From the IMG/VR virus record IMGVR_UViG_2541047897_000003: a DNA stretch of 9,362 nt; one strand, written 5' to 3'. The notes below the pieces were generated by a model that had not been told where the DNA came from, ran no database searches, and was given only the letters and a program-made list of their open reading frames with translations. The translations under genes and the position numbers were made by a program. The DNA is from a virus. Taxonomy: Duplodnaviria > Heunggongvirae > Uroviricota > Caudoviricetes. Below, in pieces: positions 1 to 9,362 of this stretch (position 1 is its first letter; every line of letters starts with the position of its first letter).

Positions 1-1056
1 TTAAAACTGATAGGTCATGCCAACCGCGACAATATCATCATTATTAATATTCAATTTGTTATCGCTATCCAGTTGGTTGATTTTATAATCAACAAACGCT
101 GACATATTTTTGTTGAAATAATACGTAGCACCAACATCGACATAATTGACCAGATCTTCATCACCGATGCCCTCAATATCTTTCCCTTTCGATAAGACAT
201 AACCCAGCGATGGACGCAGACCAAAGTCAAACTGGTATTGAGCGACCGCTTCAAAGTTCTGCGTCTTATTGGCAAAGCCGCCAGAGATTGGCATCATTTT
301 ACGTGTTTCAGAATAGAAAGTTGCCAGATAAATATTATTGGCATCGTATTTCAGACCTGTTGCCCATGCTTCTGCACGCTTGCCTGTGCCACGGCTTTGC
401 AGGTTCTGCTCGTTGGTACGATCAGAGTTGGTATAGGCTCCACTGATGGCGAAATCGCTGCCACCAAAGTCATATGTCAATGACGTGCCGAAGCCATCGC
501 CGTTTTGCTTTTTAACGTCGCGGTTTTCGTTTTTCCCTTGATATTGCAGGGTTAAGTTCAGGCCATCGATAACGCCGAAGAAGTCGGTGTTCCGATACGT
601 CGCCAGACCGCTGGCGCGTTTGGTCATAAAGTTGTCGGTCTGCGCCGAGGAGTCGCCACCAAATTCCGGGAACATATCGGTCCAGGCTTCCACGTCATAC
701 AACGCGCCCAGGTTACGACCATAATCGAAAGAACCCAAATCTTTATATTTCAACCCGGCAAAAGCGAGACGCGTTTTTTGCTGTGCAGTATCACTCTCCG
801 CTTTATTACCGGCAAACTCAGCTTCCCAACGACCATAACCAGTCAGTTGATCGTTAATTTGTGTTTCGCCTTTAAAACCAAAACGGATATAACTCTGGTC
901 GCCATCTTTACTGTCATTATCACTCATATAATGCATGGCTTTAACTTTGCCATAGACATCCAGTTTATTACCGTCTTTGTTATATATTTCTGCGGCCTGT
1001 ACGGATACAGATGCCACAATGCCCATCACCACTAATGCCAGAGTGCTCTTTTTCAT
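1..1056 (-). CDS. phoE: Outer-membrane phosphoporin PhoE (phosphate-starvation-inducible anion porin), complete
   Basis: ORF track 1..1062 (-) translates to [18 protein letters not shown]...[18 protein letters not shown]... ending ...VGMTYQF (signal peptide, C-terminal Phe typical of general porins). Recognised from memory as E. coli PhoE. The second ATG (1056-1054) is preceded by AGGA at ~6 nt and gives the known MKKSTL N-terminus; stop codon at 1-3. Confidence 0.9.
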
Positions 1057-1128
1057 TTTCATTCCTGATTTTAATTAACGCGCGAATATTCAGCGGGAGA
1101 GTCCCGTTGAAAACAGGAAAGTTTTTAA

Positions 1129-1518: not shown

Positions 1519-2034
1519 TTATACGGCTTTTTTTACATCTTGTGGTTCTTGTGAAGGAGCTACAAAACCTTCCTGTTCATGAATACCATACTCTGACAAA
1601 ATCTCTTTGCGCGCATCTGCTGGTAAAGTTTCTAGCATTTGGGCTAGTTGTATGCACTCACGCGATACGCCGTGCAGAGATTGGATTTGAGTCTGATCAA
1701 AGATACTTGGCATTAGTGCTCCAAGTCCGCCTTTACTAAGTAGCTTTAATGCCCTCTGGATTTCCTCTGGTTCTAACTCTGCGACCAAAGCCATTAACAC
1801 AGAAGCTAACTTATAAGCTGGCTTATCGCTATCTAATAACTGCGCCCCTCCTAATTCTGCCTGAGTGGCATCAGGTAATGAGCTGATATGGTATTCATAA
1901 GCAACTCCCTTTACTCCTTTGATCTGTCTCTTTTTCCATCCCTCATTAGTTGCTTTGCGGCTAATACTACTTGCTGAAGACGGAAGACCAGCAACCCCTT
2001 GTAGCTCTTTAGCTGAAAACCATTCTTGTGTCAT
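1519..2034 (-). CDS. c: Prophage repressor c (immunity repressor), D108-like rather than Mu-like; N-terminal winged-helix DNA-binding domain shared with the transposase
   Basis: ORF track 1519..2037 (-). The likely start is the ATG at 2034-2032, preceded by GAGG ~7 nt upstream on the minus strand (the track starts at an upstream GTG). Position and orientation match Mu c. The N-terminus ([24 protein letters not shown]...[15 protein letters not shown]) parallels the N-terminus of the adjacent transposase. Confidence 0.8.
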
Positions 2035-2233
2035 CACAAACCTCGCTTTAAATACACTGTGTATTCAAAGAAACAAAAATATATTCATTTTAAAATCATC
2101 AAGATAGATGAAATTCAAACGAAATATTTGAATACATCATTGCATTGACAATGTATTCACACTAACATTGCTGCATACCTTGTCAGCTACCTTGCGGCGT
2201 AGCTGATGGCGTAGCTTGTGAGGATTGCATTTT
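2035..2233. promoter_or_regulatory. Divergent early/repressor promoter-operator region, overlapping the expected transposition enhancer; repeated TGTATTCA motifs
   Basis: 200-bp AT-rich interval between divergent c and ner. TGTATTCA at 2060-2067 and 2152-2159, its complement TGAATACA at 2129-2136, and a one-mismatch copy at 2080-2087. Perfect 15-bp palindrome AATACACTGTGTATT at 2051-2065. TTGACA at 2145-2150 is a candidate -35 for the rightward early promoter, but no good -10 was found. Confidence 0.55.
2182..2218. promoter_or_regulatory. Putative Ner operator: inverted repeat plus direct repeat just upstream of ner
   Basis: Inverted repeat TCAGCTAC (2183-2190) / GTAGCTGA (2199-2206) with an 8-bp spacer. 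Direct repeat GGCGTAGCT at 2197-2205 and 2208-2216, 11 bp apart (one helical turn). This is where Ner-type repressors are known to bind in Mu and D108. Confidence 0.4.
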
Positions 2234-2452
2234 ATGGCGATAAAGAAAAGTAAATGTGAAGACAAAAGCAGATACGACATTGTTGCTGATCTGCGCAAAA
2301 GAGGAAAAAGCCTAGCAGCTCTTGGTCGTGAGAACGGTCTCTCTATCTCTACGGTAAAAAATGCCTTGGATAAACCTTACCCTCGGGGTGAAAGAATTAT
2401 TGCCGATGCATTGGGAGTTGAGCCACGAGACCTCTGGCCTTCGAGGTATTGA
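2234..2452 (+). CDS. ner: Ner-like DNA-binding protein (negative regulator of early and repressor transcription; Ner/Nlp family)
   Basis: ORF track 2225..2452 starts at TTG. The likely start is the ATG at 2234, with GAGG at 2219-2222. The product (MAIKKSK...[58 protein letters not shown]) has the Ner/Nlp HTH signature and C-terminal WPSRY. Its stop overlaps the transposase start region. Confidence 0.8.
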
Positions 2453-2454
2453 AA

Positions 2455-4455
2455 ATGCAACCACAATGTAATGATTGGTTTTCTGCAAAGAAATTAGAAG
2501 GGCTGATAGGTCTTCCAAAATCCTCTAGCGCGATCTCTCGTAAAGCAAGGTTAGAACAGTGGGTGTTTCGACAGATACACGGGGTAAGAGGAGTAGCCTA
2601 TGAGTTTCATATCTCATCTTTACCAAAGGAAACGCAAGCTGCGTTATTGCTTAGACAAGGAGAGATTGAAACAAGCATGGGCCGTTTTGAAATCGCCCGC
2701 CCCACGCTGGAAGCCCACGATTATGATCGCGAGGCGCTGTGGAGCAAATGGGATAACGCCAGCGATTCCCAGCGCAGACTTGCTGAAAAATGGTTGCCTG
2801 CGGTTCAGGCCGCAGACGAAATGCTGAACCAGGGGATTTCAACAAAAACGGCTTTTGCGACCGTTGCAGGACATTACCAGGTCAGCGCATCCACTTTGCG
2901 TGACAAGTATTACCAGGTACAGAAGTTTGCGAAGCCTGACTGGGCGGCTGCTCTTGTTGATGGACGTGGTGCATCCCGTCGCAATGTTCACAAAAGTGAA
3001 TTTGACGAGGATGCCTGGCAGTTTCTGATTGCAGATTATCTGCGACCGGAAAAACCCGCCTTCCGCAAATGTTATGAGCGTCTGGAACTGGCAGCCCGCG
3101 AGCATGGCTGGAGTATTCCCTCCCGTGCCACGGCCTTTCGCCGGATTCAGCAACTGAACGAGGCAATGGTTGTTGCCTGCCGTGAAGGTGAACATGCACT
3201 GATGCATCTGATACCGGCACAACAACGAACTGTGGAACACCTGGACGCCATGCAGTGGATCAACGGCGACGGTTATCTGCATAACGTCTTTGTACGCTGG
3301 TTTAACGGTGATGTGATCCGCCCGAAAACATGGTTCTGGCAGGATGTGAAAACCCGAAAAATTCTGGGCTGGCGCTGCGATGTGAGCGAGAACATTGATT
3401 CAATTCGCCTCTCGTTCATGGATGTTGTGACTCGCTACGGTATCCCGGAGGATTTTCACATCACCATTGATAACACCCGTGGTGCTGCGAATAAATGGCT
3501 GACGGGAGGCGCGCCCAATCGCTACCGCTTTAAGGTAAAAGAGGACGATCCAAAAGGACTGTTTTTACTGATGGGGGCGAAAATGCACTGGACAAGCGTT
3601 GTTGCCGGTAAAGGCTGGGGCCAGGCAAAACCTGTTGAACGTGCTTTCGGTGTTGGTGGGCTTGAGGAATACGTTGATAAGCATCCGGCACTGGCTGGCG
3701 CATATACGGGGCCTAATCCGCAGGCAAAACCTGATAACTATGGCGACCGCGCTGTTGATGCAGAGCTGTTTCTGAAAACCCTTGCCGAAGGTGTGGCGAT
3801 GTTCAATGCCAGAACAGGCCGTGAAACAGAAATGTGCGGAGGCAAACTTTCGTTTGATGACGTTTTTGAGCGTGAATACGCCAGAACGATTGTGCGTAAG
3901 CCTACCGAAGAGCAAAAACGGATGCTGTTACTGCCTGCCGAGGCGGTGAACGTTTCACGTAAAGGCGAGTTCGCGCTTAAAGTTGGCGGCTCCCTTAAAG
4001 GTGCGAAAAACGTTTATTACAACATGGCGTTAATGAATGCCGGAGTGAAAAAAGTTGTGGTCAGATTTGATCCACAGCAGTTACACAGCACGGTTTATTG
4101 CTACACCCTGGACGGTCGGTTTATCTGTGAAGCGGAATGTCTGTCACCTGTTGCGTTTAATGATGCTGCGGCAGGCCGTGAATATCGCCGCCGCCAGAAA
4201 CAACTGAAATCTGCGACGAAAGCAGCGATTAAGGCACAGAAACAAATGGATGCACTGGAAGTGGCAGAGCTGCTGCCGCAGATAGCCGAACCTGAAGCAC
4301 CAGAATCACGAATTGTCGGCATTTTCCGGCCTTCCGGTAATATGGAACGGGTGAAGAATCAGGAGCGTGATGATGAATACGAAACTGAGCGTGATGAATA
4401 TCTGAATCATTCGCTGGATATTCTGGAACAGAACAGACGTAAAAAAGCCATTTAA
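2455..4455 (+). CDS. A: Mu-type DDE transposase A (MuA) with a D108-like N-terminal enhancer/operator-binding domain
   Basis: ORF track 2449..4455 (668 aa from TTG). The likely start is the ATG at 2455, with GAGG at 2443-2446. From about residue 65 onward ([12 protein letters not shown]...[38 protein letters not shown]...) it matches Mu transposase as I recall it. DDE catalytic contexts are visible ([31 protein letters not shown]). Confidence 0.95.
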
Positions 4456-5919: not shown

Positions 5920-6189
5920 ATGGCAAAGGTTATCTTTGAGTTTACATGGCTGGAAAGTAGTGACGGTTGCAATGGGCGCAGAGAAGTTCTGGATGCAAAA
6001 GCATGTCTTGCAGATATCTCGCCAACGGAAAATACCGGGCCTCATGATTTACTGGCAAATATCGTCCTGACTATGGCTCCTGAAATTATTAAAAAGGCCA
6101 AAGATGAGATGCTGACCACTATGAAGAAAGTGGGTATGGAAGCTGAATGTGATTTAGTACCACATCCGGTGAATGCGGTTAAACATTAA
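5920..6189 (+). CDS. Hypothetical early protein (89 aa)
   Basis: ORF with a strong RBS (AAGGAGA ~8 nt upstream of the ATG), co-directional and tightly spaced within the early operon. No recognisable motif. Confidence 0.55.
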   Translation: MAKVIFEFTWLESSDGCNGRREVLDAKACLADISPTENTGPHDLLANIVLTMAPEIIKKAKDEMLTTMKKVGMEAECDLVPHPVNAVKH

Positions 6190-6629: not shown

Positions 6630-6929
6630 ATGGTGGCTGACATGAAGTGTAATCGTAAGCGCTGGTCACGCGAAGACCGGGAATTTATCGAAGCCAGTGT
6701 CGGGAAAATGACCGTTGAAGAAATGGCGGAAAAACTGAAAGTCGCCACAACCGCCCTCCGGGCACATGCCAGAAGGCACGGAATATCATTGTGTGTATAC
6801 CGAATCAGTGAACACGACAAATATTTATGTCGTGAACTTTATAAAGAAGGGCTGGCTATTCATGTCATTGCCCGAAAGATGGAATTAAGCAATCGAGCTG
6901 TATCCAGCATTGTATACAGCGGATATTAA
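6630..6929 (+). CDS. Hypothetical small DNA-binding protein with two helix-turn-helix-like segments
   Basis: 99-aa ORF; alternative start ATG at 6642, preceded by GGTGG. First segment RKRWSREDREFIEASVGKMTVEEMAEKLKVATTALRAHARRHGIS resembles the HTH of IS3-family OrfA and terminase small subunits. A second HTH-like stretch is GLAIHVIARKMELSNRAVSSIVYSG. Confidence 0.5.
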   Translation: MVADMKCNRKRWSREDREFIEASVGKMTVEEMAEKLKVATTALRAHARRHGISLCVYRISEHDKYLCRELYKEGLAIHVIARKMELSNRAVSSIVYSGY

Positions 6930-6948
6930 TTAACAGGAGCTTTAATTT

Positions 6949-7473
6949 ATGGCTAAACCAGCAAAACGCATCAAAAGTGCCGCAGCGGCTTATGTGCCAC
7001 AAAACCGCGATGCGGTGATTACCGATATTAAACGCATCGGGGATTTACAGCGCGAAGCATCACGTCTGGAAACGGAAATGAATGATGCCATCGCGGAAAT
7101 TACGGAGAAATTTGCAGCCCGGATTGCACCGATTAAAACCGATATTGAAACCCTTTCAAAAGGCGTTCAGGGATGGTGTGAAGCGAACCGCGACGAACTG
7201 ACGAACGGCGGCAAAGTGAAGACGGCGAATCTTGTCACCGGTGATGTATCGTGGCGGGTCCGTCCACCATCAGTAAGTATTCGTGGTATGGATGCAGTGA
7301 TGGAAACGCTGGAGCGCCTTGGCCTGCAACGCTTTATTCGCACGAAGCAGGAAATCAACAAGGAGGCGATTTTACTGGAACCAAAAGCCGTCGCAGGTGT
7401 TGCCGGAATTACGGTTAAATCGGGAATTGAAGATTTTTCCATTATTCCATTTGAACAGGAAGCCGGTATTTAA
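6949..7473 (+). CDS. gam: Gam (Ku-like double-strand DNA-end-binding protein; host exonuclease inhibitor)
   Basis: 174-aa ORF with AGGAG ~10 nt upstream. Sequence MAKPAKRIKSAAAAYVPQNRDAVITDIKRIGDLQREASRLETEMNDAIAEI... matches Mu Gam from memory in length and sequence. Confidence 0.9.
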   Translation: MAKPAKRIKSAAAAYVPQNRDAVITDIKRIGDLQREASRLETEMNDAIAEITEKFAARIAPIKTDIETLSKGVQGWCEANRDELTNGGKVKTANLVTGDVSWRVRPPSVSIRGMDAVMETLERLGLQRFIRTKQEINKEAILLEPKAVAGVAGITVKSGIEDFSIIPFEQEAGI

Positions 7474-7515
7474 TACCACCATTAATATTTAATTAATTCA
7501 CATTCTTTTAATTAT

Positions 7516-7545
7516 GGCGCGATGCGTCAGGGGATTGCTCGCGCC
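7516..7545 (+). other. GC-rich inverted repeat (7-bp stem GGCGCGA/TCGCGCC, 16-nt loop) in the gam-downstream intergenic gap; not a canonical intrinsic terminator
   Basis: GGCGCGA at 7516-7522 pairs with TCGCGCC at 7539-7545. It sits in the only sizeable gap (7474-7571) of the early operon and is preceded by a very AT-rich stretch (7471-7515). No U-tract follows the stem. Confidence 0.3.
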
Positions 7546-7571
7546 TGAAACAGATTACTGAGGAATAAAAC

Positions 7572-8102
7572 ATGGTTGATGCAAAAATTCTGAATGGTGT
7601 CAGCACATTATTACGGGCTTACGGACGCCTGACCTGCGGGGTTCTGGCTGAAAAAATGCAGATGCCATCCTCCGCGATGGTGTACTTCCTGCGTGATGCG
7701 GTTGATGCCGGAATGCTGACTGAACTTAATGGTTTTTACGACGTACCGCGTCCCCGTACAGAGCAGCCTGTAAGACGAAACACAACTGAGCAGCCTGCTG
7801 TTGATGATGCGGTGTGGTGCAACTGGCGTCGCTCATTACCCTGGGTGGAAGGTAATACTATCCCCGCGCTGGCAAAAGAGTTTGCAACAGGCGTGCTGAC
7901 CTGTGAGTCCGTTCACATCGTTGCAGAAGTGGATGACGAGATGTGCAAACAGGGAATGCCCCGTTTTGTGATGGCTTATATCGATATCCGGCTGGGGCGG
8001 TTTATTTGCAGTTCAAGCGCCTGGAATATCACCGACCATGTACTGCGTTATCTCATTCTTGATTGTTCTCCGGCTCCCGCAGCGGTGCAGGAGGTGGCGT
8101 GA
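7572..8102 (+). CDS. Hypothetical early protein (176 aa) with an N-terminal winged-helix-like segment
   Basis: GAGG 9 nt upstream of the ATG. N-terminus GVSTLLRAYGRLTCGVLAEKMQMPSSAMVYFLRDAVDAGMLTE looks like an HTH or winged helix. Stop TGA at 8100-8102 overlaps the next start. Confidence 0.6.
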   Translation: MVDAKILNGVSTLLRAYGRLTCGVLAEKMQMPSSAMVYFLRDAVDAGMLTELNGFYDVPRPRTEQPVRRNTTEQPAVDDAVWCNWRRSLPWVEGNTIPALAKEFATGVLTCESVHIVAEVDDEMCKQGMPRFVMAYIDIRLGRFICSSSAWNITDHVLRYLILDCSPAPAAVQEVA

Positions 8103-8632
8103 TGTTTTTTAAAACGTCAAATCCCGCAGCACTGCTGGCATGGGACCAGTTTATGGCGGACTGCCTGAAACTACGCGAAGAAGCCCGCCATCTTGATAAG
8201 GTTCTGGGCTGTGGTTGCCGGTCAGTATTCAGCACAGGTATTGGTGGGCGTCATTTTCATGGCGTGAATTTTCCGGGGAATGAGCGCCCCTTCTCGCGGG
8301 AGCTGTGGACCGTACAACGGCCCGCATCAGGTAACAGTTGCAGGCCCAGAACTTCGCGGATACCTGCTCATCTCAGGGAGCAGGCAAGAGAGCTGGCGAA
8401 AATATGGCAGGAGAATATTCCGGTCACTTACGCCCGCACAGATGCTCTCTTACCCGCACTGGGACTGGATTTCAGCGCAACAATATTCGGACCTCTCCAG
8501 TGGTTCCGTGTTGGTGATGTGATTTACGTCATGACGGGGATGACACCCGCACAAGGCCGCATGACTGAAATCCTTTCGGACGAATTTATCCGGGCGCAAA
8601 AACAGGCAGAGGTAAACAATGGAAAACAGTGA
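8102..8632 (+). CDS. Hypothetical early protein (176 aa)
   Basis: ATG at 8102 is preceded by a perfect AGGAGG (8089-8094) at 7 nt and overlaps the upstream stop (GTGATG). The track ORF 8063..8632 starts at an upstream TTG that lacks an RBS. Confidence 0.6.
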   Translation: MFFKTSNPAALLAWDQFMADCLKLREEARHLDKVLGCGCRSVFSTGIGGRHFHGVNFPGNERPFSRELWTVQRPASGNSCRPRTSRIPAHLREQARELAKIWQENIPVTYARTDALLPALGLDFSATIFGPLQWFRVGDVIYVMTGMTPAQGRMTEILSDEFIRAQKQAEVNNGKQ

Positions 8633-8810
8633 AACATCGTATTCGTGGCTGGGGAAATTTACCACGGTGAAACAGGAATGCCCGACCTGCGGTAATGAAT
8701 CCCCTGAATATCTGAAAGAGTGCCCTCATTGTGGCAGGCAGAAATGCAACCACTGCGATATGGGCGATGACACGGCGTGCATGAATTGTGAAGGTGAACA
8801 GAATGAATAA
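8619..8810 (+). CDS. Hypothetical small double zinc-ribbon protein (63 aa, four CxxC pairs)
   Basis: GAGG 7 nt upstream. Product contains CPTC...CPHC...CNHC...CMNC (four C-x2-C pairs) and an acidic C-terminus. Overlaps the upstream ORF by 14 nt. Confidence 0.55.
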   Translation: MENSETSYSWLGKFTTVKQECPTCGNESPEYLKECPHCGRQKCNHCDMGDDTACMNCEGEQNE

Positions 8811-9111
8811 TGGCGTATTTACAAAATCCGAGGAGCTGACAGCGTTGTTGACGGCGGCTGGTTTTCCTGAAGATGTGATCGGTAACTTTGTGGCGGCGGT
8901 ATATGCCCCGTCTTATAACCGTGCAATTGATGAGGTCATGGCGTACCGACTCGGCATTGTTGCTGAGTCACTGAGTCCTCACTGGATTATTGAAAATCTC
9001 CGCGCTATTGCTGATGGCAACGATAAATCAGCAGCCGTTGCTGCACTGGATGTGTTACGGCAAATGAGTCTGAAATTTTATCCTGAATTTATTCTGAGGA
9101 CCGCAAAATGA
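8803..9111 (+). CDS. Hypothetical early protein (~102 aa)
   Basis: ATG at 8803 overlaps the previous stop (8808-8810), with AAGGTG upstream; the track starts at GTG 8788. No recognisable motif. Confidence 0.5.
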   Translation: MNNGVFTKSEELTALLTAAGFPEDVIGNFVAAVYAPSYNRAIDEVMAYRLGIVAESLSPHWIIENLRAIADGNDKSAAVAALDVLRQMSLKFYPEFILRTAK

Positions 9112-9362
9112 ACAATGAAGATAAATTTACACCCCTTAATATTGATAACGTCATGGCTGAAAAAAGGATGCTGGAACGTGTTCGCGCTATCGTTGAATAT
9201 GGTATTAAGCACGCTCTCACTGCCAGAGAAGTTCGTGACATTATCAACCGCGAAATGAATCGTCTGGAAACAGTAGTGGCACTGCAAAATGAAACAGCCC
9301 GCGAGGAGTACATCCGCCGCAGGCTGGGGTTATCAGACCAGGATATTGTTACTGACGCTCAT
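9108..9362 (+). CDS. Hypothetical early protein, 5' part only (runs off the window end)
   Basis: ATG at 9108 overlaps the upstream stop (ATGA), with GAGG at 9096-9099. My own translation of the open frame to the window edge is MNNEDKFTPLNIDNVMAEKRMLERVRAIVEYGIKHALTAREVRDIINREMNRLETVVALQNETAREEYIRRRLGLSDQDIVTDAH.... It is absent from the ORF track because it has no stop within the window. Confidence 0.5.
   Translation, partial: MNNEDKFTPLNIDNVMAEKRMLERVRAIVEYGIKHALTAREVRDIINREMNRLETVVALQNETAREEYIRRRLGLSDQDIVTDAH

Follow-up and report, generated by a model that had tools for sequence, protein, structure and literature searches.

Five tightly packed early genes of a Mu-type prophage are long-catalogued, uncharacterised Mu genes joined by one gene known from SfMu

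Do five tightly packed small ORFs downstream of gam in a Mu-like element make up an undescribed early phage system, or do they belong to a region already on record? The question was raised by a 9,362-nt stretch of viral DNA (the window hereafter), in which the original prediction saw a block of translationally coupled early genes that might interfere with host defence or modulate replication. The surroundings of the block identify the element. A porin gene is followed by genes in the Mu order: repressor (c), ner, transposase A, B, kil, four small ORFs and gam. From about position 1181, where the Mu left-end sequence starts, to its end, the window matches prophages of several E. coli genomes at 99.8% identity; these sit elsewhere in the chromosome, as expected because the phage is transposable. 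A megablast search with positions 7400-9362 returned Muvirus records only (Mu, D108, SfMu, the Yersinia vB_YpM phages, PhiR68_1 and Mu_3F6). The element is a Mu-type (Muvirus) prophage of E. coli, of which the window shows the left end, and the five-ORF block is a portion of the semi-essential early region between gam and gemA; the repressor, Ner and the N-terminus of A are of a non-Mu type, unlike those of phage Mu. The published literature describes the semi-essential early region of Mu as largely uncharacterised and transcribed from Pe.

All five ORFs are present in the ORF list at the positions originally predicted (Table 1), and we assigned their identities from a tblastn table against seven related loci. 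Four are Mu gp11-gp14, annotated in the Mu GenBank record (AF083977) as hypothetical proteins, with the old names E10-E15 (also Mup11-Mup14). Phage Mu has these genes in the same order and position after gam and with the same gp11/gp12 and gp12/gp13 overlaps, but it lacks the extra 102-aa gene (ORF4) that the window carries between gp13 and gp14. An assignment of ORF4 to Mu gp14, with ORF5 as the novel gene, was rejected, as the tblastn table shows the reverse: ORF5 is 97% identical to Mu gp14, measured on the full 100-aa protein of an identical E. coli prophage, and ORF4 matches ORF14 of SfMu, one of two SfMu genes (ORF11 and ORF14) that the SfMu paper reports as having no homologues in Mu or D108. 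The genes are consequently not undescribed, as had been proposed; Pfam families exist for two of them (PF25754 and PF26885). The block consists of long-catalogued uncharacterised Mu genes and one gene known from SfMu; genes and families alike are on record, the region was recognised decades ago, and the window adds no new gene class.

Table 1. Features of the window that bear on the five-gene block.
Feature	Coordinates	Strand	Description
Porin gene	1-1062	minus	ORF list
Mu left-end sequence TGTATTGATTCACTTGAAGTACG	starts at 1181		
gnarl2 (Mu E6/Mup07) counterpart	5920-6189		upstream of gam
gam	6949-7473		ORF list
gam-gp11 spacer	7474-7571	plus	98 nt; AT-rich stretch, then GC hairpin, then gp11 Shine-Dalgarno (SD)
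Spacer hairpin	about 7516-7545		GGCGCGA..TCGCGCC
gp11 (ORF1)	7572-8102	plus	176 aa; 92% identity over 176 aa to Mu gp11, same position; N-terminal winged helix 1-58, disordered linker 62-88, C-terminal Gp11_C alpha/beta domain 90-167
gp11/gp12 coupling junction	8090-8104	plus	SD GGAGGTGG within last gp11 codons; TGA stop overlaps gp12 ATG by 1 nt (TGATG at 8100-8104)
gp12 (ORF2)	8102-8632	plus	176 aa; pI 9.3; 99% identity to Mu gp12
gp12/gp13 overlap	8619-8632		14 nt
gp13 (ORF3)	8619-8810	plus	63 aa; pI 4.6; 93% identity to Mu gp13 over 60 aa; phrog_5584
gp13/ORF4 overlap	8803-8810		8 nt
ORF4	8803-9111	plus	102 aa; helical, acidic; homologue of SfMu ORF14; phrog_1988
ORF4/gp14 overlap	9108-9111		4 nt; ATGA
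gp14 (ORF5)	9108-9362	plus	first 85 of 100 codons, window ends inside gene; Mu gp14, formerly E15; phrog_6075

The layout of the block is as first described. At all four internal junctions the stop and start overlap and an SD falls within the preceding ORF, and SD-like motifs lie 5-7 nt upstream of every start (AGGA, AGGAGGT, GAGGT, AGGTGA and AGGA for ORFs 1 to 5). From ner to gp11, within the same operon, overlaps occur at only 1 of 9 junctions, so the gp11-gp14 block is packed more tightly than its surroundings. Because the genes are so tightly packed, their translation is likely to be coupled by re-initiation at the overlapping junctions with internal SDs, a mechanism read from these sequence features. 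A consensus scan of positions 6900-9362 revealed no sigma-70-like promoter and no convincing plus-strand terminator, and Rfam matched no RNA family anywhere in the window. The block is a single transcription unit, part of the long early transcript from Pe, from which the five genes would be transcribed together; this agrees with the early, co-transcribed block of the original prediction. The hairpin in the spacer between gam and gp11 has a fold z of -1.65, which is not significant. SfMu, vB_YpM_3 and Salmonella prophages carry a DUF5420 gene inserted at the position of this spacer, before gp11, which the window lacks.

Purifying selection acts on all five ORFs. Compared with orthologues, Nei-Gojobori dN/dS ranges from 0.04 to 0.46 (gp11, about 0.2; gp12, 0.04-0.05; gp13, 0.2-0.45; ORF4, 0.42-0.46; gp14, 0.2-0.3); all five are therefore real protein genes, and chance ORFs are ruled out by these values together with conservation. 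Hydrophobic segments long enough to cross a membrane are absent from all five proteins, and none of the five matches an enzymatic family in Pfam, NCBIfam or PADLOC, in line with the expectation that recognisable enzymatic motifs would be absent. Their PHROGs (1949, 2314, 5584, 1988 and 6075 for ORFs 1 to 5) are all labelled 'unknown function', and NCBIfam and PADLOC gave nothing meaningful for the five; the combined Pfam, NCBIfam, PHROGs and PADLOC output amounts to 'unknown function' families and sub-threshold zinc-ribbon and Lar-like matches. PDB sequence searches with gp11, gp12, gp13, ORF4, gp14 and a 40-member gp12 profile returned nothing significant, and Foldseek against BFVD found unnamed family members only.

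Gene content across relatives separates the five genes. We scored 80 IMG/VR loci encoding gp11 by tblastn for all cassette genes and based our counts on the 65 viral contigs with both gp11 and gemA; these contigs are mutually related, so the counts are not independent events, and the number of distinct arrangements stands by itself. The gp11-gemA interval occurs in 25 gene arrangements among the 65 loci and spans 78 to 3391 nt. gp12 is found in 42 loci (and so missing from 23), ORF4 in 34, gp13 in 28 and gp14 in 25, and all five genes are together in just 8. By hand tally, 22 loci have both gp12 and gp13, 20 have gp12 only, 6 have gp13 only and 17 have neither. The flanking anchors are steady: gam is present in 58 of the 65 loci and gemA, by locus selection, in all 65. 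The gam-gemA interval is a phage accessory region, with variable genes between conserved anchors; gp11 is its near-constant member, and gp13, ORF4 and gp14 assort freely within it. The claim of one stoichiometric five-protein system does not survive these data, as the genes are present or absent independently.

Individual genomes illustrate this variability. D108 has a gp14 of the same phrog (phrog_6075) that is only 36% identical, and no ORF4. PhiR68_1 has two unrelated genes in place of gp13, ORF4 and gp14. In a Salmonella Mu-like prophage, DUF5420, gp11 and gp12 are retained, other genes follow them, and gam is missing. In SfMu, gp12 is frameshifted and split into two frames; in vB_YpM_3 and vB_YpM_23 it is deleted; and two E. 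coli prophages (E300082 and VL40) have gp11 without gp12. ORF4 is absent from Mu, D108 and PhiR68_1 by tblastn, and the search for it matched only SfMu (81% identity) and Yersinia Mu-like phages (80% in vB_YpM_5/6 and 98% in vB_YpM_3/23). In all of these Muvirus phages (SfMu and vB_YpM_3/5/6/23) the ORF4 homologue is followed by gp14 with the same ATGA junction as in the window. ORF4 and gp14 share an ATGAA(T/C)AATG start, which is plausible as the recombination joint at which ORF4 was inserted. More broadly, the small genes between gam and gemA come and go, and replace one another, at gene boundaries.

gp11 is a two-domain protein. Its C-terminal domain matches Pfam PF25754 (Gp11_C) over residues 90-167 with 137.2 bits (cut-off 27; E 2.4e-40). 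For the N-terminus, where the original prediction had suspected a winged helix, structure prediction supports such a fold, with three helices and a beta-hairpin wing; the Pfam scan gave no sequence family for this domain, and its closest known fold group comprises the MarR/ArsR, Z-alpha and SelB WH winged helices. Detection of gp11 was confined to enterobacterial Mu-type elements (E. coli, Shigella, Yersinia, Salmonella and Citrobacter), and a scan of genome contigs yielded a single locus, in Citrobacter braakii. Most likely, gp11 would act as a winged-helix adaptor or nucleic-acid binder.

gp12 presents a different picture. It matches phrog_2314 over its full length (E 3.6e-80), and a RefSeq protein identical to it is named 'Mu-Gp12 family protein'. 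PF26885 (Phage_Mu_Gp12) is a precomputed annotation of P0121, which is 99% identical, and of all 55 homologues; it went unmatched in our Pfam scan of gp12 from the window, presumably as the Pfam copy used did not include that model. Modelling gives gp12 a confident alpha/beta fold without a solved relative, and comparison of the predicted structure with the PDB produced no fold match. An exhaustive HMMER search recovered 92 representative clusters at 50% identity, most of them 165-190 aa long and matching end to end at 25-35% identity, with named members from Serratia, Klebsiella/Raoultella and Pseudomonas aeruginosa. Across the family alignment W69, G121, E156 and I157 do not vary, and the start of a C-terminal helix, EILGSEF..A, is conserved. 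By tblastn, gp12 also occurs, standing alone, in non-transposable phages, namely Klebsiella Lastavirus (about 62 kb), several groups of Vibrio phages (46-85 kb) and a Stenotrophomonas phage. The distant gp12 alignments contained no stretch conserved enough for a locus search by pattern. The idea that a gp13-like zinc ribbon always follows gp12 was rejected: unrelated ORFs lie downstream in LASTA, a Vibrio phage and the Klebsiella Mu-like phage.

Where gp12 is present, it lies directly 3' of gp11 in 42 of 42 loci. The junction between them, GGAGGTGG..T(G/A)ATGTT(T/C)TTTAA, is kept in Mu, D108, PhiR68_1, a Salmonella prophage and two metagenomic Mu-like lineages. As the lineages that share it have protein identities down to 55-61% and saturated dS, the junction must itself be under selection. 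No other junction of the block is conserved beyond what the coding sequence requires, and gp11-gp12 is the only conserved coupled pair.

The 63-aa gp13, whose start sits 14 nt inside gp12, is acidic, with a net charge of -7, and exceeds Mu gp13 by 3 codons, so that it overlaps the next gene. The original prediction gave it two zinc ribbons. Its four CxxC pairs bear this out in part: none of the eight cysteines (C21, C24, C35, C38, C43, C46, C54 and C57) varies among 7 homologues, the most distant of them 52% identical, and the pairs probably form two Zn sites. Assignment to a zinc-ribbon family did not follow, with best scores of 16-17 bits against PF12773, PF13240, PF18073 and PF14445, below the cut-offs of 25-27. 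Like the C4-C4 double zinc modules (PF12773, Prok-RING_2 and the TFIIH p44 RING-like domain), gp13 places four CxxC within about 37 residues, but its matches to them are weak and all sub-threshold, and its strong acidity sets it apart. A gp12-gp13 fusion, suggested by a match of gp13 to phrog_6418, was rejected, since gp12 does not match phrog_6418. The gp13 family is rare (13 clusters). One homologue, in a 60-kb Klebsiella lytic phage, lies directly upstream of a DUF2800/PD-(D/E)XK exonuclease, a Gp2.5-like SSB and a DNA polymerase; this single Klebsiella phage instance is a weak hint of a link to DNA metabolism. We picture gp13 as an acidic two-zinc module that may bind other proteins.

Taken as a whole, the block is probably a part of the semi-essential early accessory-gene region of Mu whose products act separately as small host-modulating binding proteins. 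Each product would be small and soluble, would bind rather than catalyse, would be made early in the lytic cycle, and would on its own modulate a host process or barrier and so raise phage yield; gp12 would be a basic, new-fold effector whose target is conserved across Gammaproteobacteria. Calling the products host-modulating accessory proteins is an argument solely from where the genes lie, how patchily they are distributed, how small they are and the absence of enzymatic motifs, and two features, the gp12 dN/dS of 0.04 and the near-universal presence of gp11, are also compatible with a part in replicating or regulating the phage itself. The conserved gp11-to-gp12 coupling means that these two genes are not fully independent. 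Within this accessory-region reading, host takeover or counter-defence is a reasonable candidate for the dominant role, though we stop short of calling it likely.

A precedent comes from the same region of Mu. Silas et al. reported that Mu E6/Mup07 is gnarl2, an accessory gene acting on the O-antigen barrier, and its counterpart in the window lies upstream of gam. The accessory regions of enterobacterial phages screened by Silas et al. likewise hold small, fast-shuffling, uncharacterised early genes between conserved anchors. There the phenotype is proven for gnarl2, a member of the same Mu region, whereas gp11-gp14 go unmentioned in those portions of the text and supplements to which our comparison refers. 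For the general idea of host-interference genes in the region, outside support exists for gnarl2 and for no other gene. Literature searches on arm, Mup11-14 and Mu anti-defence yielded nothing on gp11-gp14.

For gp12 in particular we tentatively entertain a narrower proposal, which we rate as possible and well short of likely: that it is a stand-alone, horizontally mobile early effector with an unsolved fold, held under very strong constraint by transposable as well as virulent phages of Escherichia, Salmonella, Serratia, Klebsiella, Pseudomonas, Vibrio and Stenotrophomonas and directed at a host target or defence conserved in Gammaproteobacteria, and that gp11 is its Mu-lineage-specific, winged-helix coupled partner. 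A related reading makes the two genes a module resembling the layout of type II toxin-antitoxin pairs, with gp12 as a possibly harmful effector and gp11 as a Mu-lineage neutraliser or regulator made just before it. The 1-nt overlap and embedded SD kept across four diverged lineages, the invariable adjacency of gp12 to gp11, the pairing of an acidic winged-helix protein (gp11) with a basic one (gp12), and the persistence of gp11 when gp12 is lost, as in vB_YpM_3/23, SfMu, E300082 and VL40, are what such a module would look like. However, no gp11-like ORF lies near the gp12 homologues of virulent Klebsiella and Vibrio phages or of a Klebsiella Mu-like phage, gp11 and gp12 match no toxin-antitoxin or defence family in Pfam, NCBIfam or PADLOC, and the gp12 fold has no PDB match; we regard a module of this kind as unlikely.

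A function named arm, which enhances replication, lies by classical genetics somewhere within the semi-essential early region of Mu. At least one of gp11-gp14 could be this function, amplifying Mu replication by acting directly on replicative transposition. gp12 and gp13 also occur in virulent phages that do not transpose, the winged helix of gp11 is about neutral (pI 6.0), and our literature search found no paper mapping arm, all of which makes this identification distinctly doubtful. Weakest is the reading of the five genes as one stoichiometric, co-regulated early system, whether a defence-interference or a replication-modulating complex: the four overlapping junctions, each with its own SD, the single transcription unit and purifying selection on every gene fit it, but it is largely refuted by gene content, with all five genes in so few of the related loci and so many architectures, ORF4 absent from Mu and D108, gp12 lost by deletion from Y. 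pestis phages that have been isolated and characterised, unrelated genes replacing gp13 and gp14 in PhiR68_1 and Salmonella prophages, and gp12 and gp13 each occurring singly in unrelated phages, and we consider it very improbable.

Under the accessory-region reading, the five genes are better studied singly than as a complex, gp11-gp12 being the only conserved pair. Mu is a founding model phage, yet most of its semi-essential early genes have no assigned function, and among those in the window gp12 is the best single target: widespread, strongly constrained and with a confidently predicted new fold. Its natural deletion in viable phages offers ready-made, isogenic-like comparisons. In vB_YpM_3, isolated and characterised as a Y. 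pestis phage, an in-frame deletion fuses gp11 to the last few codons of gp12 and keeps the SD and start of gp13.

The five overlapping early genes downstream of gam are gp11, gp12, gp13, ORF4 (a 102-aa gene, homologous to SfMu ORF14) and gp14. ORF4 (8803) and gp14 (9108) both open with ATGAA(T/C)AATG, encoding Met-Asn-Asn, and the gp14 start of Mu corresponds in position to the ORF4 start of the window. This comparison suggests that recombination at the short sequence common to both starts brought in ORF4. The Yersinia Mu-like phage vB_YpM_3 carries a natural in-frame deletion (L008, the comparison locus from this phage, 1184-1735) that removes nearly all of gp12, leaving gp11 fused to a few codons from the gp12 3' end; the Shine-Dalgarno site and start codon of gp13 are kept. 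A gp13-type mini-protein with eight cysteines is also found in Klebsiella phage Kpn BU9 (L013, its comparison locus, 3031-4329), a 60-kb lytic phage unrelated to the Mu-type prophage of the window; there it lies directly 5' of a DUF2800/PD-(D/E)XK exonuclease, with a Gp2.5-like SSB and a DNA polymerase also downstream.

Upstream of the block, the gam-gp11 spacer is by far the widest gap of the early operon. Its GC hairpin has no T-run, and the z-score for the fold of the spacer was not significant. This spacer is the exact site at which SfMu, vB_YpM_3 and Salmonella prophages carry an inserted DUF5420 gene. At the other end of the block, the predicted minus-strand ORF over the gp14 3' end is conserved: its Mu counterpart shares 99% identity with it, and vB_YpM_3 has a truncated version; the stretch has competing annotations, as RefSeq gives the 88-aa ORF and the Mu GenBank record a 55-aa plus-strand ORF (Mu_54).

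Features of the prophage left end and its flanks (window positions unless stated)
Feature	Position	Strand	Remark
Porin gene	1-1062	-	host flank of prophage
Mu left end	starts 1181		
Repressor (172 aa)	1519-2037	-	
ner	2225-2452		
Transposase A N-terminus	2449-2700		
gnarl2 (Mu E6/Mup07)	5920-6189	+	name from Silas et al.
gam-gp11 spacer	7474-7571		98 nt; AT-rich part, then GC hairpin at about 7516-7545
Predicted 88-aa ORF	11174-11440 of comparison locus L003 (about window 9349-9615, mostly past window end)	-	overlaps gp14 3' end

The accessory gene gnarl2, upstream of gam, reportedly alters the O-antigen barrier (Silas et al.). Besides kil, gam, gemA and mor, it was the only gene of the semi-essential region for which our literature search found a published phenotype.

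Further upstream, the repressor and the transposase A N-terminus have a similar opening motif in common, WFSAKEL/WFSAKKL ... GVAYE(Y/F)HISSLP, which is what binding of both to one operator/enhancer would predict. Both, like ner, differ from their counterparts in Mu itself. The prophage is inserted ~118 bp upstream of the start codon of the porin gene, which we take to be PhoE-like, and the insertion may disturb the porin promoter. In other E. coli genomes, a 99.8% identical prophage is integrated at different sites.
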